Source of the DNA: Candidatus Latescibacterota bacterium
Lineage (GTDB): Bacteria; Latescibacterota; CBDEFO01
Length of the DNA stretch: 64,000 nucleotides
Assembly: GCA_965248755.1 (NCBI GenBank)
Contig: OZ252149.1
Coordinates: forward strand, 4,096,001-4,160,000
Direction of reading: 5' to 3'
In this document: in pieces, positions 4,673 to 63,692 of the stretch
Layout of the letters: each line of letters starts with the position of its first letter
Numbering within the stretch: the first letter of the stretch is position 1
Notes under the pieces: generated by a model
Told to the model about the DNA's origin: nothing
The model's database searches: none
The model's input: only the letters and a program-made list of their open reading frames with translations
Position numbers and translations under genes: made by a program

Positions 4673-4693
4673 CCCCGATTGAATCTATCGGGG
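4673..4693 (+). repeat. Family A 21-bp palindrome CCCCGATTGAATCTATCGGGG
   Basis: Exact consensus. Further copies at 11476, 17508 (nested), 27260, 33958, 35164, 49404, 57202 (nested), 57383, 63302. Confidence 0.95.
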
Positions 4694-4728
4694 CATGCCT
4701 CCTTTCTATCCCTTTGTAATGAATGCTC

Positions 4729-6237: not shown

Positions 6238-6246
6238 CCTTTCACC

Positions 6247-11458: not shown

Positions 11459-11522
11459 TTCTCCCAACTTTCTGCCCCCGATTGAATCTATCGGGGGCTA
11501 CTGTATGCCTGTTATGCCCTAC

Positions 11523-17467: not shown

Positions 17468-17680
17468 CAGTAGGGAGGGCGCACTGCCTCTCTTCCCTTG
17501 AGATTGCCCTCGATTGAACCCCCGACAGATTCAATCGGGGGTCGGGGATTGCTTCGGGGGTCTGCTCATCGTAATGACAGAAGCCGAGAACAAAACAATG
17601 TCATTGCGATTCTCCTGAACTGCTATTCAGAGCAGACCAATCTCAGTCAGACTGCCTCTCGGCGTTTGCTGTCTATCTTT
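17468..17680. repeat. Composite B+C element containing a nested pair of family A palindromes
   Basis: GAGATTGC[A with inverted A inside]ATTGCTTCG...CGTAATGAC...TGTCATTGCGA...CAATCTC...GCTGTCTA. Confidence 0.85.
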
Positions 17681-24392: not shown

Positions 24393-26249
24393 TTATACGT
24401 CGCCGGTCAGTCGGACCCGTACCCCCTGAGCCTCCAATGCCGGGATCTGTTCATTGATAGCAGCATCGCTGAGAGGGTTGTTCCACAGAGACAGCTTTCT
24501 CAGTTCAGTCAGTCCAATGAATGGGGATAGATCGCTGATTTTGTTCTCGTCCAGACCCAACTCTCTCAGTTTTCTCAGTCCAGCCAAAGGAGACAGATCA
24601 CTGATTTGATTGTGTCCCAGCCACAGCACCGTAAGTTGCGTCAGTCCAGATAGCGGAGACAGATCGCTAATCTGGTTGTTATGCAGAGTCAGCCTTGTAA
24701 GTTGTGTTAGTTCAGACAACGGAGACAGATCGCTGATCTTATTCCCATCCATCATCAGCTTTTTGAGTTGTCTCAGTTCAGATAGAGAAGATAGATCACT
24801 AATCTGGTTGTTAAATAGTCGCAGATCTGTCAGTTGGGTCAACTGCCCGATACCTGTCAAGTCAGTACTCTGACCCCTTCCCACCTCCAACTTGGTTAGT
24901 CTTGTCACATCTTTCGGAGTCAGTACCCCCTCAGGTTTGCGCAAGGCCTTCCGTACTGCCGTCTCCAGGTTGGGGTCGGCAAAGGTTATAGCTATAGAAT
25001 ATGTCGCTGTTACGCCTCGAGCCTCCAATGCTGGAATGTGTTTGTTGATAGCGACATCACCGAGCGGGTTGTCCCTCAGACTCAGCCTTGTCAATTGAGT
25101 CATTCCGAGCAACGGAGATAGATTGCTGATCTGGTTGCCCCAGAGGCTCAGTTTTGTCATTTGTGTCATCCCTGCTATCGGGGATAGATCACTAATCTTA
25201 TTGGTACTGAGATCCAGGTGAGTCAGTTGCGTGAGTTCAGACAGCGGTGATATATCGCTAATCTGGTTTCTTCCCAGCCACAAGCCTGTCAATCGTATCA
25301 GTTCAGACAGTGGAGACATATCGGTGATCCGGTTATTTCCCAGAGTCAGCAATGTGAGTTGTGTCAGTCCTGACAGTGGAGACATATCGCTAATCCAGTT
25401 GTCTCCCAGAGTCAGAAATCTGAGTTGTGTCAGTCCTGATAGGGGAGATACATCCCTGATATGGTTGTGCAACACCTGTAGCTCTCTCAGTTCAGTTAGT
25501 CCAGCCAGTGGAGATAGATCACTAATCCCGTTGTTGAACATATACAGTTTTGTCAACTGTGTCAGTCCAGCAAGCGGAGATAGATTGCGGATCTCGTTGC
25601 CCCGGAGGCTCAGTTTTGTTAGTTGAGTCAGCCCTGCCAGCGGGGATAGATCACTAATCTGATTGCTACTCAGATCCAGGTGTGTAAGTTGTGTTAGTCC
25701 AGACAGCCGAGATATATCGCTGATTTGATTGCTATTGAGCAACAATTTTCTCAGTTGTCTCAGTTCAGATAGCGGCGCAAGGTTGCTGATCTCGTTGCCC
25801 TGTAGATCCAGATCTGTCAGTTGAGTCAGTTTGGATATCACGGAAAGATCACTAAGCTGGTTGCCCGCCAGAACCAGTCTTGACAGATGTGTTAGTTCGG
25901 ATACCAGAGAAAGGTCGTTAATCTGGTTGAACCCAAGATCCAGCTCTATTAGTTGTGTTAGACCAGATAGCGCAGATATATCGCTAATTTGGTTGCCCTT
26001 CAGATTCAGTTTCGACAGTCGAGTCAATTGCTCGATCCCAGTCAAGGCCGTAATCTTCTTTCCAGCCAAATCTAACCCTGTTAGGCCTACCAAGTCTTCT
26101 TGGGTGAGTTCTCCCTCGGCTTTATCCACAACCTCACGTACTGCAGCCTCCAGCCTGGGATCAGCAAAATCCTTTACCGGTTTCGGAGCGTTGTCGCCAC
26201 ATGCGATTAAGACCAGCAGAATTGGCCCGACTACAATCGTTCTATCCAT
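24393..26249 (-). CDS. Internalin-like leucine-rich-repeat lipoprotein with two LRR blocks
   Basis: Lipobox LIAC; two FADPxLExAVR caps; more than 20 repeats of 22 aa (NQISDLSPLSGLTQLTxLxL). Confidence 0.93.
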   Translation of the reverse strand: MDRTIVVGPILLVLIACGDNAPKPVKDFADPRLEAAVREVVDKAEGELTQEDLVGLTGLDLAGKKITALTGIEQLTRLSKLNLKGNQISDISALSGLTQLIELDLGFNQINDLSLVSELTHLSRLVLAGNQLSDLSVISKLTQLTDLDLQGNEISNLAPLSELRQLRKLLLNSNQISDISRLSGLTQLTHLDLSSNQISDLSPLAGLTQLTKLSLRGNEIRNLSPLAGLTQLTKLYMFNNGISDLSPLAGLTELRELQVLHNHIRDVSPLSGLTQLRFLTLGDNWISDMSPLSGLTQLTLLTLGNNRITDMSPLSELIRLTGLWLGRNQISDISPLSELTQLTHLDLSTNKISDLSPIAGMTQMTKLSLWGNQISNLSPLLGMTQLTRLSLRDNPLGDVAINKHIPALEARGVTATYSIAITFADPNLETAVRKALRKPEGVLTPKDVTRLTKLEVGRGQSTDLTGIGQLTQLTDLRLFNNQISDLSSLSELRQLKKLMMDGNKISDLSPLSELTQLTRLTLHNNQISDLSPLSGLTQLTVLWLGHNQISDLSPLAGLRKLRELGLDENKISDLSPFIGLTELRKLSLWNNPLSDAAINEQIPALEAQGVRVRLTGDV

Positions 26250-27224: not shown

Positions 27225-27339
27225 AGGCTATCTGCCTCCCTGCACAAGTAGACAGTAGCCCCCGATTGAAGCTATCGGGGGTAGATAGGGGCACCGCCTC
27301 CCATCCCTTTCTACTACAAAGGGTCAATGCTTCCACAAG

Positions 27340-27746: not shown

Positions 27747-27843
27747 TGTTCGTACCCGATTTCGTCCTCCTTTGGTGCGTAACGTTGCCAGGCACGCATA
27801 CCGCTCCCCTTGACAGAGCGACAAATATTTCGCAAATTGGGGT

Positions 27844-28173
27844 TTGAGAAGGGAGGTCAAGGTGTCGAGCCCCGAAGTGAAAGATGGTAAGCGCTGGACG
27901 GCGACCCGTAAGGGAGAGATTGTGTTGGCTCTTTTGAGAGGAGCAGATCTATCTGAGGTGTGTCGTAAGAATGGAATTAGCCAGTCGCAGGCGTATGCTT
28001 GGCGTGATAGTTTCTTAGAAGGGGGCCAGGAGAGTCTGAAGTCTCGGCGTGGTCGCAAGGATCCGAAGGAGCGAGAGGTTAGCCGGTTGGAGCGCAAGGT
28101 AGGGCAGTTGACGCTCCAGTTGGAGATACTCGAAGAGGTAGCCCGTCTAAAAAAAACGAAGCGGTTGCCTTGA
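27844..28173 (+). CDS. IS3 transposase OrfA (HTH)
   Basis: RWTATRKGEIVL..SEVCRKNGIS..YAW HTH plus zipper; start probably GTG 27862. Confidence 0.9.
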   Translation: MRREVKVSSPEVKDGKRWTATRKGEIVLALLRGADLSEVCRKNGISQSQAYAWRDSFLEGGQESLKSRRGRKDPKEREVSRLERKVGQLTLQLEILEEVARLKKTKRLP

Positions 28174-29033
28174 GTGGGCGGTTTTTGGGTCGAGGCTATT
28201 CCCGCAAGGTGGTAGCTTTGGCTTTGGGTTTGCATCGTTCGACTCTGTATAGGTTTAGGGATAGAGGTGTCAGTTCTTCTGTTAAAGAGCCTGTGATAGA
28301 TGAGGAGCTTGCTTTTCGTATTCGAGGGATACTGGACCAAGAAGAGGCATTTGGTCACAGGCGGGTTTGGGCGCATCTTCGTTTCAAGGAAGGGGAATGT
28401 GTCAACGTTAAGAAGGTTCATAGGATAATGAAGCTTAAGGGGTGGCAGTGTAAGCTGTGGAATCGTCCCGGGAGAAAGGGGCCACAGGTTGCCCAGAAGC
28501 GTTCTGTGGTGGATAGTCCCGACAGTTTGTGGTCGAGTGACTTGACAAAGATTTACTGTGGAAAAGATGGTTGGTGTCCTCTTATTGCGGTGGTGGACAA
28601 CGGAAGCCGGGAGGCTCCTGGGTATCGTTTTAGTCGAAAAGGGAGGGCACTGGAGGCCACAGATGCCCTGGATCGGGCCGTGATCTCTCGATACACTTCC
28701 AAGGAGGCTGTCCCCCAGGGTCTCACTTTGCGCTCTGACAATGGTTCCATCTTTTTGGCTCGGGCCTATTTGGCCAGTACCGAATATTGGGGAATTCGTC
28801 AGGAATACATACCAAGTGGTAAACCCGATTGGAACGGTGTTGTAGAGCGTTTTTTCAGGACCCTCAAGCAAGAGTGTGTTTGGCTTCACAAGTTTGAATC
28901 CTTTGAACAGGCTGAGAAGATCATATCTCAGTGGATCGATAATTACAACAAGAACAGGCTTCATTCATCCCTGGGATATAAGACCCCAAAAGAGTGGAGA
29001 AAACAATTTTATCTACTACCCCAGGTTGCTTAA
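28170..29033 (+). CDS. IS3 transposase OrfB (DDE), -1 frame via A8 run at 28149-28156
   Basis: WSSDLT, RSDNGS, NGVVERFFRTLKQE, RLHSSLGYKTP. Confidence 0.93.
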   Translation: MSGRFLGRGYSRKVVALALGLHRSTLYRFRDRGVSSSVKEPVIDEELAFRIRGILDQEEAFGHRRVWAHLRFKEGECVNVKKVHRIMKLKGWQCKLWNRPGRKGPQVAQKRSVVDSPDSLWSSDLTKIYCGKDGWCPLIAVVDNGSREAPGYRFSRKGRALEATDALDRAVISRYTSKEAVPQGLTLRSDNGSIFLARAYLASTEYWGIRQEYIPSGKPDWNGVVERFFRTLKQECVWLHKFESFEQAEKIISQWIDNYNKNRLHSSLGYKTPKEWRKQFYLLPQVA

Positions 29034-29102
29034 TTGGTGTCGCTTTCCTGGGAAGCAGTACACACGATGAATCTTTTGGGTCACTTAAGGGTATGGTTTT
29101 TC

Positions 29103-33911: not shown

Positions 33912-34140
33912 AAGCAGGCAGGAGACAGGAATACCGTCTTCCCTGTCTTGAGATTGTCCTCGATTGAATCTATCGGGGATTGCTTCGGGTTTTTTCCCCT
34001 AGCGATGACCGAAGACAAGGGCAAGAAATGAGTACAGGGCGAAGCCAGCGCAGCGTGATAAAACCAAGCTTAATCGTCATTGGGGCCCCCTGATTAAGCG
34101 GGGGTAGCGAAGCAATCTCTATTAGACTGCCTTTCTCTCT
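33912..34140. repeat. Composite C element with a family A palindrome at 33958
   Basis: GAGATTG[A]ATTGCTTCG...GCGATGAC...CGTCATTG...GCGAAGCAATCTC. Confidence 0.85.
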
Positions 34141-34152
34141 GTATAGTGCCTA

Positions 34153-35039: not shown

Positions 35040-35282
35040 AGCCTTTCCCTATCACTGACTACTGTCCGCTCGTCTATGAGATTGCTTTGGGGAGATTGCT
35101 TGGGGACCAAATCCCTCGCAATGACGTTGCTTATTTTCATTTTCTGTCATTGCGACCCCTCTCCCCCGATTGAATCTATCGGGGGTAAATCGGGGGGAGC
35201 GAACTAATCTAGAGGGATGGGCGGCAGCCCCTGGTTACTGTCTACCGCCTGCTTTCTACTTGTGTATGCTCTCTGCTGTCTT
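35040..35282. repeat. Composite B+C element with a family A palindrome at 35164
   Basis: GAGATTGCTT twice, CCTCGCAATGAC, TGTCATTGCGA, CTGTCTAC. Confidence 0.85.
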
Positions 35283-39955: not shown

Positions 39956-41419
39956 TTATGGGTAAGTTTCTGTTATCTCAATAATATTTCCATCAAGGTT
40001 AACCTTGGCCTTTACCCAGTTTACCACAACTCCTCCAAAGGCATTCTTGCCTCTGTAAGTCGTTCTAACCACGAGGTAATCCCCCATATCCCAATAGACC
40101 GTCTCAACATGGTCATAACTGTCAGGATCATTCATCTCCTTCTTAATGAGGCGATCAAGATTTCTATGGGAACCATCCCATGCGCTAAATTAACGTTCTA
40201 TTTTCTCTTTCCGTTTAGCGGCAAGTCGCTGCTCCTCCTTTTCTTCTGCCGCCTTGGTCTTGTCATAAAGTAGTTTTGACTTATATTTTTCATTATCTGG
40301 ATGTAACGCAAGCTCGACCTTGCGTACCCGGTGATTGAACGTATCCGCGATATAGATAACCCCCGATCCATGCACGAATACGCCATTAAGCTCCTTCAAG
40401 CTCGCACTGGTAGCTGGACCGCCATCACCGGAAAATCCACCGGCATCATAACCGGTACCCCCGCTTCCCGCCACAGTGGAGATGATGCCAGACGTATCCA
40501 CCTTACGTATCCGGTGATTGAGATGATCCGCGATATAGATAACTCCTGATCCACCCATGAATACGCCACGAGGATTATTTAAGCTCGCACTGGTTGCTGG
40601 TCCTCCATCACCTAAAGCACCGGTGCCACCTCCCGCGACGGTGGAGATGATGCCCGACGTATCCACCTTACGTATCCGGTGATTGTGCTGATCCGCAATA
40701 TAGATATTGCCCAATTCATCCACGAATACGTCATAAGGAAAATTCAAACCCGCACTGGTAGCTGGACCACCATCACCGGAAAATGCTTCAGTGCCATTTC
40801 CTGCCACGGTGGAGATAATGCCCGACGTATCCACCTTCCGTATCCGGTTATTGCGGATATCCGCAACATAAATATTGCCTGATCCATCCACGAATACGCT
40901 ATGTGGAAAATTCAAACTCGCACTGGTTGCCGGACCTCCATCACCGGAGAATCCAGCAGTACCATTTCCTGCCACGGTGGAGATGATGCCCGACGTATCT
41001 ACCTTGCGTATCCGGCAATTCCACGTATCCGCGATATAGATAACCCCCGATCTGTCAACGAATACACCATAAGGCCAACTCAAGCTCGCACTGGTAGCTG
41101 GGCGCCCATCACCGGAGAATGCATGCGTGCCGTTTCCTGCCACGGTGGAGATGATGCCCGAAGCATCCACCTTACGTATCTTGTCATTCCACGGATCCGC
41201 GATATAGAGAACGCCCGATACATCCACGAATACGCCAGAAGGAAAATCCAATCTCGCACTGGTTGCCGGACCCCCATCACCGGAAAATCCAGCAGTACCA
41301 TTTCCTGCCACGGTGGCGATCACGCCTGGTTCAGCAGAAACTGAAGGGGCAAATGCAAAGATCCAGGAATACAAAACCAAAATACTAATCACAACATCTT
41401 TACAGAGATCCTTTCTCAT
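39956..41419 (-). pseudogene. Secreted NHL-repeat protein fused to an unrelated domain, interrupted by in-frame TAA at 40190
   Basis: Six repeats TVAGNG..GFSGDGGPATSA.L..P..VFVD..G.IYIAD..N.RIRKVD; frame continues 77 aa beyond the TAA (FSAWDGSHRN...RGKNAFGGVV...). Confidence 0.8.
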
Positions 41420-41506
41420 ATTGTGCACCTCCATCATTTTCGGATGACGGCCCAGCTAACCTCTCGCCTTCCAACGTTTCCATTATTCCTGTCTCCTACC
41501 AACTGT

Positions 41507-49374: not shown

Positions 49375-49570
49375 GAGATTCCTTCGTCCACTTCGTGGCA
49401 AGCCCTCGATTGAATCTTTCGGGGGCAAGCTGCCTCCCCAGCAAAGCGGCCACGCCGCCTCGCAATGACATTGTCTGGCTGCGATCTTAGTCATTGCTAA
49501 GGGTGAAACACGGAAGGAATCCCCTATCTATTGGGCGTGGTAACCTCGCCCCTGCCTACTATCTGCTGAC
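49375..49570. repeat. Composite C element with a family A palindrome at 49404
   Basis: GAGATTCCTTCG..GCAAGC[A]GCAAGC..CCTCGCAATGACA..GTCATTGC. Confidence 0.8.
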
Positions 49571-52500: not shown

Positions 52501-55500
52501 TCTGCTGTATTATCGGTGTAAAGCGGGATAGAATATTGATAGTACGCGTTCCTTTCATCCAAAAAGCTGTTGTTGTTTATATCTTCTGTATCGGGAATTA
52601 TCCCCCTGTCCGAATCGTTCTTGCTGTCTTCTGTTCCGTTGATCTGTTCGTAGTTGTCTCTGCTGTCCGTATCCGAATCGTAGTGCCAGTTATCCCCATT
52701 GGGATCGGGATTAAGGACGGGATCGTATCCTGGCTCAGCTTCATCGGCAAGCCCGTCTATTCCAACATCTTCACCCACGTCGAGGACGTTATTCCTGATC
52801 CCGGATACATTCCTGTCCTCAGTGTCCAGCATCCCTCGGTGCTCTTCTTCAAAGCCTTCATTTACACCCAGAAAGAAAATATCCTCAGATATATCTCCCA
52901 AATCTATGTTCAGTATCCCTTCATCTCCCTTTACCCACACCTCTATGAACTTAGACCGGGAAAAGTCATTGCCTCCTGAGGGGAGAGCCCGCATAACCCC
53001 TCCCCAGCGTTCGTCAATCGGTATTGTACCTGATACCTCCTCTTGATAGGTAGCTTTTCCCTCAGGATCGAAATCCAACACCAGGATATCTGTTTTGTTC
53101 TCCCTGCTTGAGACTTCCTTGTTGGGCCATATCTCCCTGGTGTCCACTCTATCGAAGGGATTATACCATATCAATCTTCCCTGAGTGGATTCGAAGCTCT
53201 TTGTCTCCTTTGATTCATCCACCGGTGGGCTGGCCTGGGTCCACACAGATCTGAATATCCCAAAGCTCGTCTTCCTACTGCTCCCCTCAAAGTCATCTAT
53301 GAACGCCTGACCCAGTGTGTTCGGGTTCGGAAGGCTTTGAGCAAATTCAGCGGATATGTGAAGCTTCGAAGACTGCGACGATTTTACAAGTGGAATGGCG
53401 TTCACAAAGCTTGTCATAAATTGGGGCTCGAACTGGAGCCTCAAATCTGTGTCCCAGATTATTGTTCTTGCAGGCTCTTGACCAACTCGCACTCTCTTGT
53501 CGATCGATCTTTCGTTATTGTAGAGGAAGGTGCTCCCAAGGGACGACTTGCCCATAAATTTGTACTCAGCTCTGGTCCCTATGAGTGTCTTTTGTTGAGC
53601 CGCAAACGCAAAGAGCGGGCTGTCTTCGAAATTGACCACTACCTCTGCTGTGGGGGAGAGCGCTTCGTCTGTTAAGAACGTAATATCCCCTGAAAAATAG
53701 TCTATATTGTAATCGGTTCTCCTTTGAAGTCTCCTTCCGTTGAGGATGACTTCCTCAGAGCCCTCAAGGATGCCAAAGGAGCTGATGCTGACCCTGCTGG
53801 ACTGTCTGTCCTGGACCTCCACCTCTATAAAGTACCTGCTGGCGTTTTGTCTGACTATCCGGTCTTGGCTTTCGTATATTTGGGGGATCGTCTCTTCAAG
53901 CGGCGGTATGTCAAGACCGTTATCCCTTGCCCAATCGGGGTTTAAGGGAGCAAAAGGCTGAAGGTCAGGTAATACCAATTCTCCTCTTTCAAGGTCTAGC
54001 GGGACGAAACGGAAGTTGCCTATCTGTATCTCCCCGAGATCTACAAGATTGTCAGATTGGGGGTTGTTATCTCTATCCTTATGGTCTAATCCTAAAATCT
54101 TTATGTAGGGGACGCCGTTTTGCGAATCGTCGGGATCGTCCCCGGGGAGATCCTTGAATATCCTGAGGTCGAATCCTTCGAGATTTATCCTCCTTGCTCC
54201 GAGGTTGTAGACATTTTTCCACTCGAGGTCCCAAGTTGTCTCCTGACCCGGGAACGGTCTCTGATTCTTGGCCTTTATCAGTTTTAAATTAAGTTCTGTG
54301 CCCAGCGTCGCGAGGCTGTCCACGTCTCCAAAGGAGTCTCCCCTCTTCGTCTCGTAGGTCACAGCTGCAACGTGGTAATCTCTTACGGGTCTGTTCAGAA
54401 TTATGTATCCCAACCTGGGGTCCAGGAAGTAGTCATTAGGGTCTATCTCGTGGAACTTGCCTCTGTGGAAATTCGTAGCAGTTTTTTGGAAATTGTCCGG
54501 GTTGAACTCCTGTCCTCCATCCCAATAGTAAGCGAGTCCATCTATAGCTCTGTCTTCGGCATCGTTTTGCTGATTCTGGTCATCTACGAAGACTCTCAAG
54601 TTGAGTATAGAGAACTGGGGTTTGTATTCTCGTTCCTTGAACCTGTCTCTATATCCAATATCCAGAAAGAAGTACTTATTCCTTATGTACTGGAAATCCT
54701 TTATCCTTCTGGGTTTGTTCTGCTGTGCTCCGCCTCTGAAGGTCTTCTTCTTTCCCGAAGATTTCTCTTGACTCACAATAGTCGTTATATCGACAGAGCC
54801 TACCTTGCTTTTGACCCTGATTCCGAAGAGCCCTTTACTTTGAGCGCTGAAGCCCACAAACTGCGTTCCGGGGAGAGACAAAGTAGTGTTTCCTGCCTCT
54901 ATCTCCTGAATTATTCCGTCCTCTATCCCGTCGTATCTGAGTTTTATAGCGTTGTCCGTTCTCCCTCTGCTGTCCTGGTCCACTTGAACGTGAATTCTCT
55001 CTCCGATGATCCCCTCTACGGTGAACCTGGACTCCTGCTTCATGTTGAGAGACGGGAACTTAGATGGCCTGGATGTAGCAGTAACGATTTGCCCATCTGT
55101 CCACTCGCTCCTGCCCGAAAAGTTGATCTTCCGCCTCCCTGACACCTTGACTCGGCTCCCTTCACCTATGATACTCCTTAGAGCCTTTGGTATCTTCACT
55201 GGAATATTGATGCTCAGTCCACCGTCCTTCTTTCTGTCCTTTTTATTCTCTCTTACGGCATCCCTGTCGAACCATAATTTCCCCCTGTCCATGTCTGTGC
55301 TCAGTTGGACAAAGTCATCGACACCTAACGTAACAGGCCACCCATATCGGGACTTCCCAAACATCTTCACAAACTTCACCCTATTCAGTCCCGGATACAC
55401 TTCCAGCTCGTCCTGGATCATCTTGACGTTGCTTTCAAGAAGAGCTGGAGAATCGTTAGATAGCGATATCCTCCCTGATCTCCCGTTCCCGCCTTTGTTC

Positions 55501-55613
55501 CAGAATGTGCTGTAGTTATCCGGAATCTTAAGCCCCAGTTTTGACTGTGCTCTATTGGGCAACAACAGGAAGAGAGCGCAGACTAATATTGTGAAAACTT
55601 TCCTATTTCCCAT
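49572..55613 (-). CDS. sprA: T9SS outer-membrane translocon SprA/Sov homologue
   Basis: About 2000 aa; IKLRYDG.EDGIIQEIEAGN, GLFGI, WDLEWKNVY, IDDFEG, LIWYNP, VWVDELR; C-terminal beta strands. Confidence 0.92.
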   Translation of the reverse strand: MGNRKVFTILVCALFLLLPNRAQSKLGLKIPDNYSTFWNKGGNGRSGRISLSNDSPALLESNVKMIQDELEVYPGLNRVKFVKMFGKSRYGWPVTLGVDDFVQLSTDMDRGKLWFDRDAVRENKKDRKKDGGLSINIPVKIPKALRSIIGEGSRVKVSGRRKINFSGRSEWTDGQIVTATSRPSKFPSLNMKQESRFTVEGIIGERIHVQVDQDSRGRTDNAIKLRYDGIEDGIIQEIEAGNTTLSLPGTQFVGFSAQSKGLFGIRVKSKVGSVDITTIVSQEKSSGKKKTFRGGAQQNKPRRIKDFQYIRNKYFFLDIGYRDRFKEREYKPQFSILNLRVFVDDQNQQNDAEDRAIDGLAYYWDGGQEFNPDNFQKTATNFHRGKFHEIDPNDYFLDPRLGYIILNRPVRDYHVAAVTYETKRGDSFGDVDSLATLGTELNLKLIKAKNQRPFPGQETTWDLEWKNVYNLGARRINLEGFDLRIFKDLPGDDPDDSQNGVPYIKILGLDHKDRDNNPQSDNLVDLGEIQIGNFRFVPLDLERGELVLPDLQPFAPLNPDWARDNGLDIPPLEETIPQIYESQDRIVRQNASRYFIEVEVQDRQSSRVSISSFGILEGSEEVILNGRRLQRRTDYNIDYFSGDITFLTDEALSPTAEVVVNFEDSPLFAFAAQQKTLIGTRAEYKFMGKSSLGSTFLYNNERSIDKRVRVGQEPARTIIWDTDLRLQFEPQFMTSFVNAIPLVKSSQSSKLHISAEFAQSLPNPNTLGQAFIDDFEGSSRKTSFGIFRSVWTQASPPVDESKETKSFESTQGRLIWYNPFDRVDTREIWPNKEVSSRENKTDILVLDFDPEGKATYQEEVSGTIPIDERWGGVMRALPSGGNDFSRSKFIEVWVKGDEGILNIDLGDISEDIFFLGVNEGFEEEHRGMLDTEDRNVSGIRNNVLDVGEDVGIDGLADEAEPGYDPVLNPDPNGDNWHYDSDTDSRDNYEQINGTEDSKNDSDRGIIPDTEDINNNSFLDERNAYYQYSIPLYTDNTADPIPFLVEDTYSNGWRLFRVPLWDSPQIRSQNAAPDSTRIEYVRLWVTGVDSRTEISIASIEIAGNEWLESQELLGDQKLDVSIKSTDQNKDYISPVEKESRQVDRTSGVREREQSLVLKFENIEPGQEVSANKVLFRKESYTEYGRLKMFVNGQGHSFRPDTSTVELFIRFGADTTNYYEYRTKVFSGDVWDTRNEVDIDLKLMSGLKGDLLDAQAAARADSQHVPTYIDTTVDGKMHRVRGNPALSNIKLLTVGLINRGTEDITGEVWVDELRLDDVRREKGTAARLQINAGFADFMDISTSLSWQEDNFRTLRSERGSGSTRRNINLRGDANLDRFFPNNWGVSLPLRVSWNNSLSLPRLKPGSDVILRIEEKMDERTERTRKNINISFRKKESKNPFIKYTIDRASATFNSTIEDGISPRDSTLNESLSGSFKYDLSPRSDSAIKLLGWTSAFLPDFFSESKFRYFPSSFSYSNKTNKNKRFRSTVDQNRRNRRETKDDNFIMVEDYRAKFDPFKSLSSDYSLNRKKDLEGNLDIGKFKFGDEIGRSQNVRVDLKLNWIKWLGQNYGYNARYKENNDPKTRRAGQSGRDINNENSISGKFTLQLPSFFKAIGNIKKKSKDKGKGTLSKEEDKKGKVSPASIERASEGNGTSLLDLIAALGGRLSPVSGSYTKKRSFRKFGLEERPSLSYQLGFTEDPKVEGANLSGVSQSDSKTISDRINANSGIKLFSGISVKTDYGYDRSVSDIANREPRHTKKVTFPSLSSRWNGLAKMPLLKRVATSSNLDFKYKRVNSWNGDGGLDIAKLRGKTATSDFSPLFAWTTRWKNKLRTTLKSTNSRSFRTDFTGGRERGSTETTKNSLDFSLDYSISTSRGIPFFGKKVKLKSDVDMTLKFTKSRTKEENKLPLSEGSIRRGSVPRRDQNSWTLVFNSSYKFSRKLTGGSKIEVGNTFNNISKRTRKIRELGFWAEIRFD

Positions 55614-55654
55614 GACGGTTTGAGCTCTAACATAGTAAAAGCACAGTGCATTGG

Positions 55655-55683
55655 ATAATACCACAATAGTGCCTAAAGATCAA
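55655..55683 (-). promoter_or_regulatory. Sigma70-type promoter for sprA
   Basis: Minus strand TTGATC-N17-TATTAT with TGn extension. Confidence 0.6.
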
Positions 55684-55852
55684 GTTAAATTTTGGCCGGC
55701 CGCAGAAATGCTTTTGTTTTAAGTCTGAAATATTTTATATTGTAGGATAGAGTCCACATAGATACAGTAGACAGTAAACAGTAGACAGGGCACCGCTCCT
55801 CATCACCACCTGTTTCCACCACCTCCTTCCCCTCAATGGGGCCAATAGACCT

Positions 55853-57235
55853 ATGAGCATACTGCACCGCTATGTATTGAAAGAACATATAGCTCCTTTC
55901 TTCCTAAGTCTATCAGTCATCATCTTCATACTGATAATAAACAGGATCCTTTTCTTTGCAAATATGCTCCTAGGAAAGGGGGTAGGGTTACAGGTCATCG
56001 CTGAGTTCTTCTTCTTGAGCCTTGCATGGATGATCGCTTTGGCTATTCCAATGTCTGTTCTGGCCTCAACTTTGATGGCATTTGGAAGACTCTCCTCTGA
56101 CAACGAAATAACCGCCATAAGGGCAAGTGGGGTAAGCATCTACTACCTGATGGCTCCTGTTCTGCTGGCCGCCTCTCTGCTTTCGGTCGGTTTGGTTCTA
56201 TTCAACGACAGGATACTGCCCGATTTCAACCTCAGAGCCAAAAACCTCCTCTACGACATCCGCCGCAAGAAGCCCGCGTTGGAATTGAAGGACATGGAGG
56301 GCATCTTTATAAACGACTTTTCGGGATATAACGTCCTCTTTGAGAAGATAGATGAAGACGAGTCCAAGATGTATAATGTGACTATCTATCAGCAACAAGA
56401 GGGGAAGTACCCTGTCTCGATCCGCGCCAAATGGGGAGATCTTAAGTTCTCAGAGGAGACAGATAACTTAATTTTAAGCCTCTACGATGGGGAAATACAT
56501 CAGCTAGATCCTGAAGACAGCGACAGATACGTCCGCACCACTTTCAAAAGACATTTGATAAACATACCGGATGTTGGCCAAACCTTCAAAAGGACCAGCT
56601 CTCTCGGCCGCGGAGACAGAGAAATGAGCGTCCGGATGATGCTCGACGAAATCAAGTCGCTCCAAAATCAGAAAAAAGTACATAGAGACAATATAGATAC
56701 TATCACGGAACAGTACATAATACGCTATCTTCCTGTATGGGAGGCAAGTTCGACGCACATCGCTTCAGTGGATTCTCTTGTCGACCGTTTTTCAAACGGT
56801 TCCCATGACTTAGCACGAGACACCCGAAAGACCCTCATCCAGGTCCGCAGGGAAACTGCCAATATGGCCAGGAAGAACCGCAAAACAAACCAGTATCTTG
56901 TAGAGATCCATAAGAAGTTCTCCATCCCCACTGCCTGCATCGTATTTGTGCTTGTAGGGGTACCTTTGGGAATTATGGCAGGCAAGAGGGGTCAGGCTAT
57001 TGCTGTCATAAGCATCGGCTTTTTTGCCCTTTACTGGGCCTTCTTAAGGGGTGGTGAGATCCTGGCGGACAGAGAAGTAATACCGCCATATCTTTCCATG
57101 TGGGCTCCGAACATAGTCATCGGAGCCTGCGGGCTCTACCTCACCTTCAGGTCAGTCAAAAAACACGCCCTAGCCGAACACCGAAAGCAAGCAGACAGTA
57201 ACCCCGATCACCCCGATAGGTTCAATCGGGAGTAG
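55853..57235 (+). CDS. lptF: LPS export ABC permease (LptF/YjgP family)
   Basis: ILHRYVLKE, FGRLSSDNEITAIRASG, VEIHKKFSIP, MWAPN. Confidence 0.9.
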   Translation: MSILHRYVLKEHIAPFFLSLSVIIFILIINRILFFANMLLGKGVGLQVIAEFFFLSLAWMIALAIPMSVLASTLMAFGRLSSDNEITAIRASGVSIYYLMAPVLLAASLLSVGLVLFNDRILPDFNLRAKNLLYDIRRKKPALELKDMEGIFINDFSGYNVLFEKIDEDESKMYNVTIYQQQEGKYPVSIRAKWGDLKFSEETDNLILSLYDGEIHQLDPEDSDRYVRTTFKRHLINIPDVGQTFKRTSSLGRGDREMSVRMMLDEIKSLQNQKKVHRDNIDTITEQYIIRYLPVWEASSTHIASVDSLVDRFSNGSHDLARDTRKTLIQVRRETANMARKNRKTNQYLVEIHKKFSIPTACIVFVLVGVPLGIMAGKRGQAIAVISIGFFALYWAFLRGGEILADREVIPPYLSMWAPNIVIGACGLYLTFRSVKKHALAEHRKQADSNPDHPDRFNRE

Positions 57236-57456
57236 ACTCAATCGGGGATTGAATGGGGTGTAGACAGGGGGTACCACCACGCACCCCTTGAGATTGGTTC
57301 TGCTTCGCAACTCCTTCGGGGTCGGGGCTTTTCGCCCCTTGCAATGACATTGAGGATCCGTGCCTACAAATGTCAAGGCGATCCCCGATTGAATCTATCG
57401 GGGAAGCGAAGAAATCTCACTTAGACTGCTTCCTATGCGTGCGTGCTGTTTACTGT
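57190..57456. repeat. Composite B+C element with several family A copies, overlapping the lptF 3' end
   Basis: GCAGACAGTA[nested A]GTAGACAG..GAGATTGGTTCTGCTTCGC..CTTGCAATGAC..TGTC[A]AAGCGAAGAAATCTC..CTGTTTACTG. Confidence 0.85.
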
Positions 57457-57522
57457 TCAAACGAAAGTTGCAGTGTTTCCCACAACTATGACCAAATTGA
57501 GACTCTATTAGTTGCAAAAATT

Positions 57523-58596
57523 ATGCGAATCCTGAGCCGCTACATCGCCCGAGAATTCATAGGATGGCTTTTTGTAGGCCTTACTGCCTTCGTGCTTATA
57601 TTCATAGTAGTCGATTCGGTAGATCACCTCAACAGATTCATGGACAGTGACTTCACAGCGATTAGGGTGGCTAAGTACTATCTGTACTACATCCCCTACA
57701 TTGTGCTCCTGATGCTTCCTATGGTAATGCTCCTTTCGTCGTTATTCTGTTTAGGTGGTATGGCAAGGCAGAACGAACTTGTGGCGATGAAGGCCTCCGG
57801 GATGAGCTTGTATCGCATCTTATCCCCTGTCTTCTTCATAGGCATAATTGCCAGTCTGATCTCTTTAGTCTTTGCCGAAGTCGTAGTCCCGAGGACCAAT
57901 CAGCGGAGGATGGAAATAAGACACGGGACAAGCCGCAGCGACAAATCCAGGACGATCAGAAAGGATGTCTTTCTCTCCGATGGAGACAACCGCCTGGTCT
58001 TTGCCAAGGTCTATGACCCTGTGAATGAGACCGCGGATGATGTCTCCATAGAAGAATACGACGGTTCATCTTTGATAAGGAGAATTACGGGGAAGAAGAT
58101 GTTCTGGAGGGATAACGGATGGGAGGTCACGGAGGGGATAATAAGAGAATTTAGCGGCGAAGAAGAGAATATAACTCAGTTTGAAAGCAGGATCTTAGAG
58201 AACGTTTTGCTTGCCCCTATGGATTTTATAAGGGAATACAAAAAGCCTGAGGAGATGAACTACTTCGAGCTCAAACGATATATAGAAAGAGCCACGAACA
58301 GCGGAAAAGAGGCCGGAAAATGGCTGGTGGACCTCCATCTGAAAATATCGTATCCTCTGACCAATTTCATAATGGTCCTCCTCGGAGCCCCTATGGCTTC
58401 CTCTGTAGGAAGGAGGACTGGAAAGGCTGCAAGTTTCGGGATAACGATCCTGATCTCGTTTGTCTTTTACGGCTTCGTAAAGAGCGCGCAGGCGTTGGGA
58501 CACAACGGCTATCTGCAACCCCTTTTAGCGGCCTGGATAGGGAACATCGTCTTTATAACTATCGGGATTCTATTGTTGGTTAAGACGAGGAAATAG
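57523..58596 (+). CDS. lptG: LPS export ABC permease (LptG/YjgQ family)
   Basis: MRILSRYI, NELVAMKASG, HLKISYP, LAAWIGN. Confidence 0.9.
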   Translation: MRILSRYIAREFIGWLFVGLTAFVLIFIVVDSVDHLNRFMDSDFTAIRVAKYYLYYIPYIVLLMLPMVMLLSSLFCLGGMARQNELVAMKASGMSLYRILSPVFFIGIIASLISLVFAEVVVPRTNQRRMEIRHGTSRSDKSRTIRKDVFLSDGDNRLVFAKVYDPVNETADDVSIEEYDGSSLIRRITGKKMFWRDNGWEVTEGIIREFSGEEENITQFESRILENVLLAPMDFIREYKKPEEMNYFELKRYIERATNSGKEAGKWLVDLHLKISYPLTNFIMVLLGAPMASSVGRRTGKAASFGITILISFVFYGFVKSAQALGHNGYLQPLLAAWIGNIVFITIGILLLVKTRK

Positions 58597-58609
58597 GCAT
58601 CGTTTTTGC

Positions 58610-58639
58610 TTGACATTTTGTGTTATGTTTCCTTATCTT
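58610..58639 (+). promoter_or_regulatory. Possible sigma70-type promoter
   Basis: TTGACA-N18-TATCTT upstream of 58780. Confidence 0.45.
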
Positions 58640-58779
58640 GTGAGTCGTATAACATTACAGATGCCAAAGTTGAATTCTTCTCTGGCATAGCGCTATGTGG
58701 TAGGAAGGTTCAGAATTACAAAACTACATTCGGCTCTCCAACACCTAAATTAACCCTAACACAAAAGGAGGAACTAACC

Positions 58780-59871
58780 GTGAGAACTCTAACAACATTA
58801 ATCGTGCTTTCGGCCGCTGTGCTCTGTATGGGTAATGCCTACGGGGCCATATTCGTGGCTGACAATAACTTGAATGCACCGACAGGGAATAACGTGTTCT
58901 CATCACTGCAGTCGGCTCTTAACGCGGCCCAGGTGGGGGATACAGTGCAGGTGACACCGAGTCCAACTGTTTACGGGAACATAACGATTGACAGAAGATT
59001 GACGGTTTACGGTGGAGGACTTAATCCGGATAAAGATCGTTATCTCCGGTCAGTAGTGGGCACTATCACCTTTAGCAGTAACACGTTATTTCAAACTAAT
59101 GCTTCTGGTACGGTAATATCTGGCCTGCAAGCAGGGGCAGCGACATTTAGCGGCGGGGCACTCAGCAACATAGTCATTGAGAGATGTTGGTTTTATACTG
59201 GGGGGAGGATAAGTAGAAGCTCCGGTTCTTCTGTTGATAGCTTACGAATCAGGAATTGTATTATTGATATTAATAGGGAGACTCCTCTGCTAAATCTTAC
59301 AGGTGGAGCATCAAATTTGGTAATAAGCAACAGTATTTTTTACGACTTTTACAGCGCCGGCTATGGCGGTATAAGTGCAGACAATAATACAGTGATCAGC
59401 AATAATATCTTCATCGCGACAGTGAACACGGACAGACGAGCGTTCGAGAACATTACTGATTGCATAGTTGCGAATAACATCTTCTACGGTGTAAAGCCAA
59501 CCGCTAGGGTTTCAGCTCTGAGAAATGTATTCAATAATAATCTAACCTTCGGAACGAACGCAAATGGCTTACCTCCTGGTGGTGCTACAGGACAGGACAA
59601 TATTGTAAATACCGATCCTTCATTTGAGAATTTTCCTCAGAGTGGGTCTAACAGTTTCTCCTTTGGCTGGGATTTCAACCTGAAAGCCGGTTCTCCGGCG
59701 ATAAGTGCAGGCACTGACGGCACGGATATCGGTATGTTTGGGGGTAGTAATCCTCTTGATTCGTGGCCGCACGTCCTTCCGTCCATTCCGCTCATTCAGG
59801 TGTTCAACGCTTCAAGTGTAGTAAGACAGGGCGGTAATCTAAACGTGAAGGTAAAGGCAAGATCTAATTGA
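58780..59871 (+). CDS. Secreted right-handed beta-helix protein
   Basis: AAGGAGG RBS and GTG; signal peptide; SLQSALNAA..GDTV, ISNNIF repeats, DFNLKAGSPA..AGTDGTDIG.FGG. Confidence 0.85.
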   Translation: MRTLTTLIVLSAAVLCMGNAYGAIFVADNNLNAPTGNNVFSSLQSALNAAQVGDTVQVTPSPTVYGNITIDRRLTVYGGGLNPDKDRYLRSVVGTITFSSNTLFQTNASGTVISGLQAGAATFSGGALSNIVIERCWFYTGGRISRSSGSSVDSLRIRNCIIDINRETPLLNLTGGASNLVISNSIFYDFYSAGYGGISADNNTVISNNIFIATVNTDRRAFENITDCIVANNIFYGVKPTARVSALRNVFNNNLTFGTNANGLPPGGATGQDNIVNTDPSFENFPQSGSNSFSFGWDFNLKAGSPAISAGTDGTDIGMFGGSNPLDSWPHVLPSIPLIQVFNASSVVRQGGNLNVKVKARSN

Positions 59872-59942
59872 TCTGCGGGTTCCACAGAAGTCTTTGGCAT
59901 GTTCATCTTCTTCAAGATTACTACAATTTCAAGATTACTACA

Positions 59943-62900
59943 ATGGACAAATTTAGATTGAAACTGATGCTTGCAGCAGTTATTCTGCTCCTGTGCCAGG
60001 GTCATCTGCACGCGCAGACACCTGATCTTGTGGCGGCAGAATACTTTATTGATGTCGATCCGGGACACGGATTGGGCACTGCTATATCTGTGTCATCTCC
60101 GGATACATCGGTCACGTTCTCAATATCCACAACCGGGTTGAGTACGGGCCTTCATACTCTGCATGTACGGTTTAAGGATGCTAATAACAATTGGAGTATG
60201 ACCGAAGCACGACCGTTTTACATCTACGAAGCTCCCGCAGTGCAGGTAGCTTCGATAGAGGCGGTGGAATATTTTCTGGACGATGATCCTGGTCACGGTC
60301 AGGGGAGTGGATTTACTGTTGGTGTGGGCGATACTGTCGATATTACGGAGCAGATCAGTGCGGCCGGTCTTGCCACCGGTCTTCATACGTTGCACGTGCG
60401 CGCCCGCAGCCAGGATGGCAGGTGGAGTATGACCGAATCGCGGCCGTTTTACATCTACGAAGATCCTACAGTGCAAGTAGCTTCGATAGAGGCGGTGGAA
60501 TATTTTCTGGACGATGATCCTGGTCACGGTCAGGGGAGTGGATTTACTGTAAGTGTGGGCGATACAGTGGATATTACAGAGCAGATCAGTACGGCGAGTC
60601 TTGGAAGCGGTCTTCATACTCTGCATGTGCGCGCCCGCAGTCAAGATGGAATGTGGAGTGTGACTGAATCGCGTCCGTTTTACATCTATGCAGAGGCAGG
60701 AGTGCAGGTAGCTTCGATGGAGGTGGTGGAATATTTCATAGACGATGATCCCGGTCACGGTCTTGCGAGTGGATTTACTGTAGATGTGGGTGATACTGTC
60801 GATATTATGGAGCAGATCAGTGCGGCCGGTCTTGGCACTGGTCTTCATACTCTGCACGTGCGCGGTCGCAATCAAGATGGAATTTGGAGTGTGACCGAAG
60901 CACGGCCGTTCTATATATACTCCCCGCTTGATGTAACCGCGCCGTCACCACTTGTAAGGCTGGAATATTTCTTCAACACCGATCCCGGATTAGGGGCAGG
61001 TGTTGAAATACCTATTTCGCAGGCAGAGTCCGTCAATGTAGGCGTGGGACTTCCTACTGCGGGACTTCCGCTGGATAGTCATACCGTCACTGTGCGGTCG
61101 CAGAATGCGGCTGGGACATGGAGTCAGAGGGAAACTAGATCTTTTAGCATTGCTGCAGGATCGAACGATACGCCGGTGGTGAAGAACACTATCCCTGACC
61201 AAAACATTGACCTGGATGCGGGAGACCCACCATTTGCCCGAGACCTGGTCTCCCCGGATTCCGTGTTTACTGATTCCAACGGTGATGTGCTGGTCTATCA
61301 GGCCAGCAGTTCTGACTCCTCGGTGGTCGTGCCGGGTATTTCAGGGAGCATCCTTACGGTCACGGCCCTGTCGGCGGGCAGCGACACGATCACCGTCGAG
61401 GCAAACGACGGCAACGGCGGGACAGCGCAGACCGCGTTTACGCTCACAGTTACCGGAACGATCGCCTATCCGGTTGTGACATCTATCAATCCCACTTCTG
61501 GCTCAGAATCGGGCGGGACGCATGTAACGATAAGAGGGAGCAATTTCCGGAGCGGAGTGACTGTGACTTTTGGTGATAGCACAGCCACAGGTGTGGTCGT
61601 CGTGTCGCCCGATACCATTACGGCTATAACTCCCGCTCACGCTGTCGGTACTTTGGATTTGATAATCACAAATCCCAGTGGTCTGGCAGACACACTTTTT
61701 GACGGATTTGAGTTTGTTCATTCCCTTTACATAAGCGATCTAAGTGGGATTAATGGCTTGGCCAGTGATGGGATGGACTTTTGGGTTACTGGTAATCTGT
61801 CAGCATCATCTACTCAGAAGCTCTATAAAGTACGTGCCAGCGATCGGGAGCTGGTTACATCTGTAAACATACCCTATTCAGTAGGTGTCGAGCAGCTATC
61901 GGGGGTTGCACACTATAGTGGATATATCTATGTCAGAATTCATCCAAGTGGACTGATCTATCAGTATGATCCCAGCACAGGAACTGTAGACGCTACTTCA
62001 TACACCACACGTACATGGAGTAACGATATGGCCTTTCTGGGATCTGAATTGTGGCAAACACGCGATAATAGCATAGGTGGAGAATTTGAGGTTTACGATC
62101 AAAGTGGACATGAGTTCTTGGGGGAGATAGTCAGGCGTAAGTCTATTGCAAGTGACAGCACATACCTGTACATAGGAGATTATGGAAACCGTAGGCTCTG
62201 GAAGACTACAGGAGATGGGACAGTCGTGTCAGTGGATACAGTAGTATCTCCTTCTGGTTCTCTCCCTCAGTTCCTGACCTATCATAACGGTGGTCTATGG
62301 ACTAATTCAAGTGGTCCGTCTATTGTTGAATTAACATTTGATCTTGTCTCGGTCAGCCTCCCGGACACATCTGTCTTTATCGACCATACTATAGTTTCAG
62401 TTCCCGTCGTTATCGAAGAGGATGTGACAGGGCTTGGAGTCATCTCAGCCCAGATGAATATCAGCTACGATTCAAATGTAATAGAGACAATAGATGTGAC
62501 ATCGGAAGGGACACTGACCCAAGGCTGGACGACGGCTGGCACAGTTGCAACAGGCATCGGAACATCTGTAGACACCGTCAGGATTGCAATGGCAACTGCG
62601 AGAGGCAACGCATTATCGGGGTCGGGCAATCTTGTGCTTATCAAGTTTGCACTTTCCGATTCAGCAGTAATCAGTGATTCCACGGCATTGGTATTTGAGG
62701 AATTCTTCTTCAACGAGGGAGATCCACCGGCAATCACACAGGATGGGTCTGTGCGAATTATCGAAAGGTTGTTAGGGGATGTCACCGGCAACAGACAGGT
62801 AACGGCATTTGATGCCGCTTTGGTGCTTGAACACACAGTCGGTCTCTTTGTAATCTCTGACACCCTGATAGCAGATGTCAGTGGAGACGGCACTATAAGT

Positions 62901-63692
62901 TCCTTTGATGCCTCTTTGATACTCAGGTTCGTCGTCGGGATAATAACTGAGTTTCCCGCCGAAACGGGAGGCATCTCTAAGTCTATACTTGCCGAAAGGA
63001 TTATCAGTTTAGGTGATGTAGAGGCGTTGCCTGATGGACGCTTTGCCGTCGCTGTTCTCATAGACGAAATGGACGGTGTATTATCAGGTCAACTTGAACT
63101 ATCCTTCGATTCCACCAAGCTCAAAGTTTCAGAGGCTATGACATCAGACCTGACATCTGATTATCTTTTCGCCAACAATGCTCAAGATGGCAGGCTAAGG
63201 CTATCGTTTGCCGGGGTAGAATCAGTTGAAGGCAGCGGTAGGATTGCAGAGATTATGTTTGAGTCTATCGGTTCGCAGATTGAGGCTATTGGTGAAATTG
63301 ATCCCGTATTGAATCTATCGGGGATTGCTCTAACCTCTGCTCAATTGAACGAGGGCTTCTTCAGTGTGGTTATTCTCCAATCTGAAGAAGTTTCCGATGT
63401 TCCTGACAGCTATTCATTGCATCAGAACTTCCCCAATCCGTTTAACCCAGAGACGGTGATCCATTACGATCTTCCTGTCCAAAGCCACGTTGAGCTATCT
63501 GTCTATAATATGATAGGACAGAAGGTTGCAACATTGGTAAATGAGCAGATAGACGCAGGAAGCCACTCTGTATTCTGGGATGGCAAAGATGATAGTGGAG
63601 AGAGCCTTGCCAGCGGGCTCTATCTGTATCGCTTGAAAATGGATGGATCGGAAGAATTTGTGAAGATAAGGAAGTTGGTATTGGTGAGATAG
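59943..63692 (+). CDS. Large secreted modular protein: 5x EYFxDxDPG repeats, Ig-like, IPT/TIG, propeller-like, cohesin-dockerin-cohesin, FlgD-Ig/T9SS-type CTD
   Basis: Signal peptide; 231-bp near-identical repeats at 60240, 60471, 60702; GGTHVTIRGSNF; GDVTGN..FDA..ADVSGDG..FDA; QNFPNPFNPET..WDGKD..KLVLVR. Confidence 0.9.
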   Translation: MDKFRLKLMLAAVILLLCQGHLHAQTPDLVAAEYFIDVDPGHGLGTAISVSSPDTSVTFSISTTGLSTGLHTLHVRFKDANNNWSMTEARPFYIYEAPAVQVASIEAVEYFLDDDPGHGQGSGFTVGVGDTVDITEQISAAGLATGLHTLHVRARSQDGRWSMTESRPFYIYEDPTVQVASIEAVEYFLDDDPGHGQGSGFTVSVGDTVDITEQISTASLGSGLHTLHVRARSQDGMWSVTESRPFYIYAEAGVQVASMEVVEYFIDDDPGHGLASGFTVDVGDTVDIMEQISAAGLGTGLHTLHVRGRNQDGIWSVTEARPFYIYSPLDVTAPSPLVRLEYFFNTDPGLGAGVEIPISQAESVNVGVGLPTAGLPLDSHTVTVRSQNAAGTWSQRETRSFSIAAGSNDTPVVKNTIPDQNIDLDAGDPPFARDLVSPDSVFTDSNGDVLVYQASSSDSSVVVPGISGSILTVTALSAGSDTITVEANDGNGGTAQTAFTLTVTGTIAYPVVTSINPTSGSESGGTHVTIRGSNFRSGVTVTFGDSTATGVVVVSPDTITAITPAHAVGTLDLIITNPSGLADTLFDGFEFVHSLYISDLSGINGLASDGMDFWVTGNLSASSTQKLYKVRASDRELVTSVNIPYSVGVEQLSGVAHYSGYIYVRIHPSGLIYQYDPSTGTVDATSYTTRTWSNDMAFLGSELWQTRDNSIGGEFEVYDQSGHEFLGEIVRRKSIASDSTYLYIGDYGNRRLWKTTGDGTVVSVDTVVSPSGSLPQFLTYHNGGLWTNSSGPSIVELTFDLVSVSLPDTSVFIDHTIVSVPVVIEEDVTGLGVISAQMNISYDSNVIETIDVTSEGTLTQGWTTAGTVATGIGTSVDTVRIAMATARGNALSGSGNLVLIKFALSDSAVISDSTALVFEEFFFNEGDPPAITQDGSVRIIERLLGDVTGNRQVTAFDAALVLEHTVGLFVISDTLIADVSGDGTISSFDASLILRFVVGIITEFPAETGGISKSILAERIISLGDVEALPDGRFAVAVLIDEMDGVLSGQLELSFDSTKLKVSEAMTSDLTSDYLFANNAQDGRLRLSFAGVESVEGSGRIAEIMFESIGSQIEAIGEIDPVLNLSGIALTSAQLNEGFFSVVILQSEEVSDVPDSYSLHQNFPNPFNPETVIHYDLPVQSHVELSVYNMIGQKVATLVNEQIDAGSHSVFWDGKDDSGESLASGLYLYRLKMDGSEEFVKIRKLVLVR

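Follow-up and report, generated by a model that had tools for sequence, protein, structure and literature searches.

The closest known counterparts of the element described here are the small dispersed repeats (SDRs) of the Nostocaceae, which are about 20 bases long, carry no gene and are recognised as mobile from empty sites, as here (excerpts of PMC4390886, PMC5861425 and PMC2884548). Among these, SDR5 is described in the same excerpts as entering the short palindromic HIP1 target precisely and at a fixed point, and the excerpt of PMC5861425 reports no SDR-like repeat outside the Nostocaceae among HIP1-rich cyanobacteria. Here, a gene-less hairpin of 23 bp, Y-CCCCGAT-TGAATCT-ATCGGGG-R, was analysed in a 64,000-nucleotide stretch of DNA from Candidatus Latescibacterota bacterium (assembly GCA_965248755.1, contig OZ252149.1, positions 4,096,001 to 4,160,000; the window), in its source genome (G000; 4.54 Mb, one contig) and in a relative of the same genus (G001). 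It proved to be a discrete, mobile unit. SDRs belong to another phylum and have, as far as known, another sequence, and are likened to it by their descriptions, not by sequence. They are reportedly 21–27 nt long and associated with heptamer repeats. The traits of an SDR, namely a size of about 20–27 bases, dispersal, and filled as well as empty sites, were all found here, and elements of this size are already known from Nostoc.

Other short bacterial repeats resemble the hairpin in part. Copies of CGTC-type repetitive extragenic palindromic (REP) sequences lying in frame within genes are known, and these repeats are said to lack a dedicated transposase (excerpt of PMC3733652). Repeat mobility is raised only as a hypothesis in the excerpt of the Ssn paper (PMC11893778). 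Compared with the CGTC REP, NTS and Ssn motifs as described in these excerpts, the window unit has no tag, no tail and a loop of 7–9 bases instead of 4–5; unlike them it moves as a single hairpin and was not found beside an Ssn gene. Neither the terminal (C/T)GTC-A tag nor the unpaired 3' tail was detected in the 431 copies examined for these hallmarks, whereas the 8-bp stem was present. GTAG REP/REPIN-RAYT systems and IS200/IS605 ends are short hairpins as well, and a tagged sibling of the window unit shares with them four bases at the 5' foot and clean insertion in one orientation (excerpts of PMC6006769 and PMC3116915). Unlike in GTAG REPs, however, the tag is CCTG or CTTG or is absent, and bases are lost or duplicated at most junctions; the GTAG/GTGG guide is absent from the copies, and no PF01797 (RAYT) match was obtained in the source genome or the relative. 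With bacterial miniature inverted-repeat transposable elements, as defined in the excerpt of PMC3733652, the unit shares terminal inverted repeats, the lack of a gene and, in a minority of copies, duplications of 3–4 bp, but it has 23 bases and its duplication length is not fixed. No insertion sequence (IS) of the source genome was found to share the hairpin as its ends, and the only multi-copy host is an IS interrupted internally. No description of the element was found in the literature searched, most subscription papers lying outside that search.

The hairpin and its copies

The 21-mer singled out in a sequence-only reading of the window was recovered at ten loci (at most two mismatches; no match in 100 shuffles of the window), with full copies starting at 4673, 11476, 17520, 27260, 33958, 35164, 49404, 57211, 57383 and 63303. 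All ten loci of that reading were retained, but two of its positions (17508, 57202) are outer copies of nested pairs and a third (63302) was one base early. Its length of 21 bp had to be revised. Across the 505 distinct contexts in the source genome, the bases bordering the 21-mer pair as T..A in 230 and as C..G in 157, so the unit comprises 23 bases and folds as an 8-bp stem. The central loop base is variable among copies. Outside the unit, a purine is favoured at −2 and a pyrimidine at +2, and nothing else is conserved beyond (431 copies). The source genome contains 105 exact 21-mers and 530 copies with up to three mismatches, about one site per 9 kb, while the same genome read backwards as a control gave none at up to three mismatches. 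Inverted flanks around the copies are in weak excess only. A comparison with known structured RNAs (Rfam, gathering thresholds) gave no match in the window. The copies of the window and one empty target site are listed below; T..A and C..G denote the end bases, and filled or empty refers to the relative unless stated otherwise.

4672..4694, plus strand: exact 21-mer (4673-4693) with ends T and C, just downstream of atpB; filled
11475..11497, plus strand: 23-bp unit of C..G type, located between genes for two membrane subunits of complex I; filled
17507..17548, plus strand: outer copy of a nested pair, TTG/TTG flanks (17504-17506, 17549-17551), interrupting the end of a GAGATTGCTTC repeat
17519..17541, minus strand: inner 23-bp unit of C..G type, running antiparallel to the outer copy 17507..17548
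27259..27281, plus strand: 23-bp unit, C..G type, within a (GTAGACA)n heptamer array; filled
28463..28466, no strand: empty target site inside the IS copy 27797-29062
33957..33979, plus strand: 23-bp unit, T..A type, TTG/TTG flanks, in the end of a GAGATTGCTTC repeat
35163..35185, plus strand: 23-bp unit, C..G type, nested in a decayed outer copy (~35156-35196) within a GTCATTGCGA repeat
49403..49425, plus strand: 23-bp unit, C..G type, with the 4-bp direct repeat CAAG (49399-49402, 49426-49429); filled
57202..57248, minus strand: nested pair (inner unit 57210-57232); an lptF/G-family gene takes its TAG stop (57233-57235) from the outer copy
57382..57404, plus strand: 23-bp unit, T..A type; empty, with GCGA in its place (net +19)
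63302..63324, plus strand: 23-bp unit in frame in a 1274-codon gene (59868-63692), net +27 bases (9 codons)

Nesting in an older copy was seen for three of the ten window copies (17520, 35164, 57211). At the first of these, the inner copy replaces the loop bases TCTA of the outer one, and the nesting is identical in the relative. The copy at 57383 is empty in the relative, and the other nine are filled in both genomes. The direct repeats previously taken as flanks are present, but every one of them counts one or both terminal bases of the 23-bp unit as flank: ATTGC/ATTGC and ATTG/ATTG (33953) shrink to TTG, GCAAGC to CAAG, the ATTG repeat at 63297 to TTGA/TTGC, and GTAG to TAG inside a (GTAGACA)n array. 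At 63302..63324 the duplicated word is TTGA, which reads TTGA/TTGC here and TTGA/TTGA in the relative. The earlier observation that the unit interrupts other repeats was borne out, GAGATTGCTT being uninterrupted at 35078 and 35092.

Empty sites, junctions and targets

Filled and empty sites were sought by comparing 2.4 of the ~4.6 Mb of the relative with the source genome in both directions. Flanks were about 95% identical, and a pair was scored when the net change was 14–35 bases. From the source genome, 554 hits were followed, of which 298 had no counterpart in the compared part, 109 were filled in both genomes, 70 were too rearranged, 24 were longer by 14–35 bases and the rest showed other differences. 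The 304 hits of the relative comprised 63 without counterpart, 87 filled in both, 62 too rearranged and 46 longer by 14–35 bases. This gave 70 rows, a few of which pair paralogous repeats and not true orthologues, and 68 distinct filled/empty pairs, with net changes of +19 (23 pairs), +20 (12), +27 (14), +18 (6), +26 (3), +21 (2) and other values (8). Rows filled in the relative only outnumber those filled in the source genome only (46 vs 24); because certain rows count a single event again through paralogous or tandem repeats, this imbalance, which would fit the retention of an Ssn gene by the relative, was not used.

Empty sites also occur within the source genome. An IS present in about 70 near-identical copies, IS3-like by the reading of its ORFs (open reading frames), is filled in 15 and empty in 55 at one and the same site; the window copy (27797-29062) is empty, and the filled copies ferry the hairpin as a passenger. 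The in-frame copy at 63303 corresponds to 27 bases that are absent from five paralogous segments of the source genome and present in one. The expectation of the sequence-only reading that empty orthologous sites exist was confirmed, empty paralogous sites were found as well, and, as that reading supposed, the hairpin is not a fixed part of one larger element. Insertion of the hairpin as a mobile unit is on this evidence close to certain. We infer that the filled sites are gains; direction is given by majority for the IS and the paralogous genes only, the pairs being unrooted. Four contig-only sequencing runs contained no new empty allele among the matches listed. Decayed relatives of the window IS carry the tagged 27-mer near one end.

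Three classes of junction were observed, namely replacement of four or three target bases, duplication of 3–4 bp, and clean insertion of the tagged 27-base form. Replacement (+19 and +20) accounts for 35 of the 68 pairs, and target duplication, formerly seen as the rule, is not supported as such. Eleven of the 23 +19 events lie within a further copy of the element, where almost always the same four bases of the loop are hit. For the other 12, the lost bases include a central CG in 7 and have G at the third place in 10, the CG frequency in the flanks of these events being 4.3%; the CG-centred pattern was noticed first and then tested. A target that matches YCGR perfectly consequently reads as a clean 19-base insertion into C^G. 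At imperfect YCGR targets the end bases are overwritten, and the end bases of the element often differ from those of the target. In 6 of 13 rows of the +20 class, filled and empty site disagree at position −2, mostly A to G, which suggests that this class represents a 24-base unit replacing four bases.

Duplications of 4 bp flank 20 of 505 copies (shuffle mean 3.2, largest 12) and those of 3 bp flank 44 (shuffle mean 12.9, largest 26). Together they amount to 64 copies vs about 16 by chance, in line with the excess over shuffled controls that had been anticipated. The doubled words are mostly TCAA/TTGA, CTTG, TTG/CAA and TAG/CTA, the last often within heptamer arrays, where a repeat is expected anyway. 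Among the 14 pairs with +27, three are true duplications and at least seven are clean insertions of the tagged 27-mer; ten rows show CCTG to the left or CAGG/CAAG/CAGC to the right; a one-mismatch duplication is an alternative reading for two of these, and two represent one tandem event. The fixed point of SDR5 in HIP1, as given in the excerpts cited above, resembles the C^G preference of this unit. SDR5 insertion is described there as precise, whereas most events here lose 3–4 bases and precision is confined to the tagged 27-mer and perfect YC^GR targets.

Targets and orientation were analysed for 407 copies. The hairpin prefers other repeats and itself and enters in either orientation: 205 copies lie within 45 bases of another repeat family, vs 241 of 2000 random non-ORF positions, 126 adjoin GTCATTGCGA..GAAGCAATCT words, the commonest host repeat in the source genome, and 61 stand next to pieces of the element itself. 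Well inside ORFs of at least 150 codons, 61 copies were found, some of these naive ORF calls being spurious. When 168 genomes of the phylum were scanned with a looser pattern, many copies were present only in the source genome (229) and the relative (263), two further genomes having one match each. Among the matches listed in the species-genome scan (80 loci), 68 belong to a Candidatus Latescibacterota record with the coordinates of the relative, 9 to Deltaproteobacteria, 2 to a Thermodesulfobacteriota record and 1 to a contig labelled Nanoarchaeia. The exact 23-mer had no match in viral contigs.

Several genes of the window adjoin hairpin copies. The lptF/G-family gene (55853-57235) runs through a heptamer repeat into the nested hairpin pair, which provides its stop codon, and the bases of this gene end differ in the relative. 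On the minus strand, a purine-rich stretch and an ATG (4694-4710) lead straight into the hairpin at 4673; the frame from this ATG has three codons and lies about 130 bases upstream of the likely atpE start. A sirtuin gene (34153-34995) is located between two hairpin-bearing repeats, and the intervening stretch (33979-35163) is, as the alignments suggest, much shorter in the relative, so that a gene may have been gained or lost between repeats. The products of 59868-63692, 24393-26249 and 40190-41437 are repeat-rich secreted proteins, comprising a cohesin/dockerin/FlgD-Ig protein with many paralogous segments, a leucine-rich-repeat protein and an NHL-repeat protein.

Related motifs and candidate enzymes

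The tag CCTG or CTTG adjoins 69 of 504 copies in the source genome, where about 10 are expected, and 41 of 284 in the compared part of the relative, some of these matches being duplications or words of host repeats. The core of the tagged set is distinguished by a particular loop start, with A or G at position 7, by a constant orientation and by a GG that precedes the tag (32 of 69). Elsewhere, the tagged form was found in two viral contigs and, within the phylum to which G031 belongs, in 6 of 401 genomes (G and L numbers label the other genomes and the gene or repeat loci that were compared). Other loops of the Ssn-motif type are also seen in tagged hairpins; these have entered Ssn-related motifs at L083, L218, L227 and L361 and, at L344, belong to the repeats that border an Ssn-like gene on either side.

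The same stem-loop is part of a long form in Deltaproteobacterial loci, GTCAT-Y-CCCGA(A/G)TGnnTYTATCGGG-R-ATCY, whose parts are arranged like those of the NTS that SsnA cuts (excerpt of PMC11893778). It shares with the CGTC REP, NTS and Ssn motifs, as far as the excerpts describe them, the tag, an 8-bp stem starting with A-T and T-A pairs and a short tail. The long-form pattern had matches in at least 124 metagenome and 10 viral stretches. Most of them form inverted pairs, which is likewise the arrangement of CGTC REP and Ssn motifs. The long form also flanks Ssn-like genes, being located 30 bases behind the one at L216, which was found by tblastn and is missed by a GIY-YIG regular expression, and on both sides of the one at L360. 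At L468 an Ssn-like gene is flanked on both sides by a repeat of the GTCATTGCGA..GAAGCAATCT type. Because the GTCA-tagged form with tail, the CCTG/CTTG-tagged form and the bare form share it, this is one stem-loop in three forms. The earlier statement that the element has no REP tag is thus valid for the bare form, but not for the stem-loop as a whole, which bears GTCA elsewhere and CCTG/CTTG in the source genome. Judging by this likeness in sequence, the bare hairpin very probably descends from an Ssn-related (CGTC-type) motif.

No enzyme had been noticed in the window, and a Pfam search of its 45 ORFs revealed no nuclease or transposase family; one IS copy (27797-29062) is nevertheless present. 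The relative has an intact Ssn-like ORF of 107 codons between Ssn-related motifs. Six relics of the left end of the Ssn cassette (left motif and first codons) were located in the source genome, one of them beside tagged hairpins:

Source genome, contig C1, positions 1272066, 1852182, 2714256, 2979151, 3031499 and 3547848: relics of the Ssn cassette, transferred to these places without its remainder

No Ssn gene was detected beside 32 tagged loci or 80 exact-match loci (621–830 bases each), and no Ssn relative was confirmed in the viral contigs with the long form (10) or the tagged form (2). According to the excerpt of PMC11893778, SsnA depends on bases that flank the palindrome on either side, acts on a single orientation and has been shown to cut only, not to join.

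Other enzymes of the source genome were rejected as movers. Two reverse transcriptases have no hairpin of their own beside them, and one is cut by a hairpin-bearing IS copy. The latter is retron-like and has an upstream partner gene (C1:3731483-3733370); the second RT-domain gene is located at C1 3677786-3679310, both labels being provisional. Genes for four-helix-bundle proteins are limited to a frameshifted one in the source genome, the relative having none, and no hairpin flanks it. This gene (PF05635; C1:2579250-2580050) lies between GTAGACA heptamer repeats and is absent at the counterpart in the relative, which suggests that gene and heptamers form a small mobile cassette. The 40 ORFs with a hairpin copy on both sides resemble ordinary genes by eye. 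At L469 and L476, small GIY-YIG genes of another subfamily are flanked by a different palindromic repeat.

Possible routes of movement

A tentative model can be proposed from these data. A single-stranded DNA copy would be made of the hairpin, which is likely the bare stem-loop of an Ssn-related (CGTC-type) repeat, and a visiting single-strand nuclease, acting in trans and most likely of the Ssn GIY-YIG family, would paste this copy into nicked, hairpin-rich DNA, the junctions being completed by host repair. Their shape would be set by two breaks about 4 bases apart or by pairing of the YC..GR ends with a YCGR-like target. We infer the single-stranded intermediate. The model as a whole is a possibility that we prefer without considering it probable, and Ssn in the role of mover is a lead, a candidate held with considerable doubt.

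A series of observations weighs against this model. The source genome has no long-form copy and no short GIY-YIG gene, UvrC only, tblastn yielding just the relics, and 24 scored pairs are filled there only. The Ssn gene of the relative is flanked by a different loop type. Long form and gene rarely coincide, since one of 134 long-form loci shows an Ssn gene in the DNA examined and one of 30 Ssn loci has the long form; G221, the genome of an Ssn locus with the long form, has no tagged copy. Five partial genomes with the short form contained no Ssn gene, and in two of five tag-carrying genomes an Ssn-like gene is present that is bordered by other motifs. The short form was absent from the flanks of every GIY-YIG, Y1 and four-helix-bundle gene examined. 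Furthermore, insertions fall inside host hairpins and not upstream, where SsnA cuts, and the 23-mer lacks the outside bases required by SsnA and any orientation bias. Indeed, 196 of the 407 copies are on the leading strand (p 0.49, with noisy skew), and 118 vs 124 were counted in the two directions relative to co-directional genes.

The tagged 27-base form, with four bases at its 5' foot and clean one-way insertion mostly after G, would rather fit the logic of IS200/IS605 elements and REP guides, a tetranucleotide at the hairpin foot being the HUH signature in the excerpt of PMC6006769. A different mover, that is, a HUH (Y1) transposase or another small nuclease passing through lineages, is therefore a rival that we consider unlikely, though worth serious attention. 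The extra four bases of CCTG/CAGG type in the clean +27 pairs are no copies of the target, G precedes the tag at 25 of 32 loci of other genomes and viral contigs (by eye), and Y1 genes are present in three of the four other tag-rich genomes searched. However, no Y1 match was obtained in the source genome or the relative, the hairpin is absent from all 12 Y1 loci examined, and the main, untagged form removes or doubles bases and enters both ways, unlike an insertion of the IS200/IS605 type. Activity in a genome with neither an Ssn nor a Y1 gene speaks for a route with no dedicated enzyme at all, whereby host repair would use a short DNA or RNA copy of the hairpin as a patch. At a break made by any nuclease in hairpin-rich DNA, the YC and GR ends would pair with a YCGR-like target and overwrite it. 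The idea of gene conversion exists for the Nostoc SDRs and is parallel to it. The CG-centred lost bases (7 of 12), an additional, donor-like G at the junctions of roughly half the 12 +20 events, and self-nesting agree with patching, as do the duplicated words, which are words of the loop or tag of the element. Against it, two bases per end are a very short homology, numerous targets agree with YCGR at no more than one or two positions, and the two reverse transcriptase genes have no hairpin alongside. Moreover, the bursts are restricted to two of the 168 phylum genomes and letter-for-letter copies occur in distant phyla, which suggests a travelling partner. Patch repair is also rated as unlikely, to the same degree as a HUH mover.

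Explanations without movement carry far less weight. The palindromic and mostly intergenic 8-bp stem could recall a protein-binding site, an uptake sequence or a terminator arising in place by mutation and selection; presence or absence of the whole unit at orthologous sites contradicts this, as do insertion into an IS and in frame into genes, self-nesting and the lack of gene orientation, and such an origin is very improbable. An assembly or adapter artefact, which a short hairpin in very high copy number might bring to mind, has a practically negligible probability, since copies are shared and independently mutated at orthologous sites of the relative, exact copies occur in unrelated assemblies, and a short-read contig (run X1, maybe the source sample) spans 54815-60275 without difference.

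On the question of how repeats of fewer than 30 bases move, the two Latescibacterota genomes provide dozens of filled and empty sites with a clear junction signature, a target bias and a named candidate enzyme. The element rewrites gene ends, protein loops and IS copies. Beyond the model preferred here, it is conceivable, although distinctly speculative, that Ssn-related repeats spawned a minimal family of mobile hairpins and that small GIY-YIG nucleases act as single-strand transposases; the members would then have one stem-loop in common and differ only in the four tag bases at the 5' side (GTCA, CCTG/CTTG or none), and each would follow a junction rule of its own. If true, GIY-YIG transposases would represent a new chemistry that writes an oligonucleotide of 23–27 bases into DNA, and would explain the spread of CGTC REPs and SDR-like repeats.

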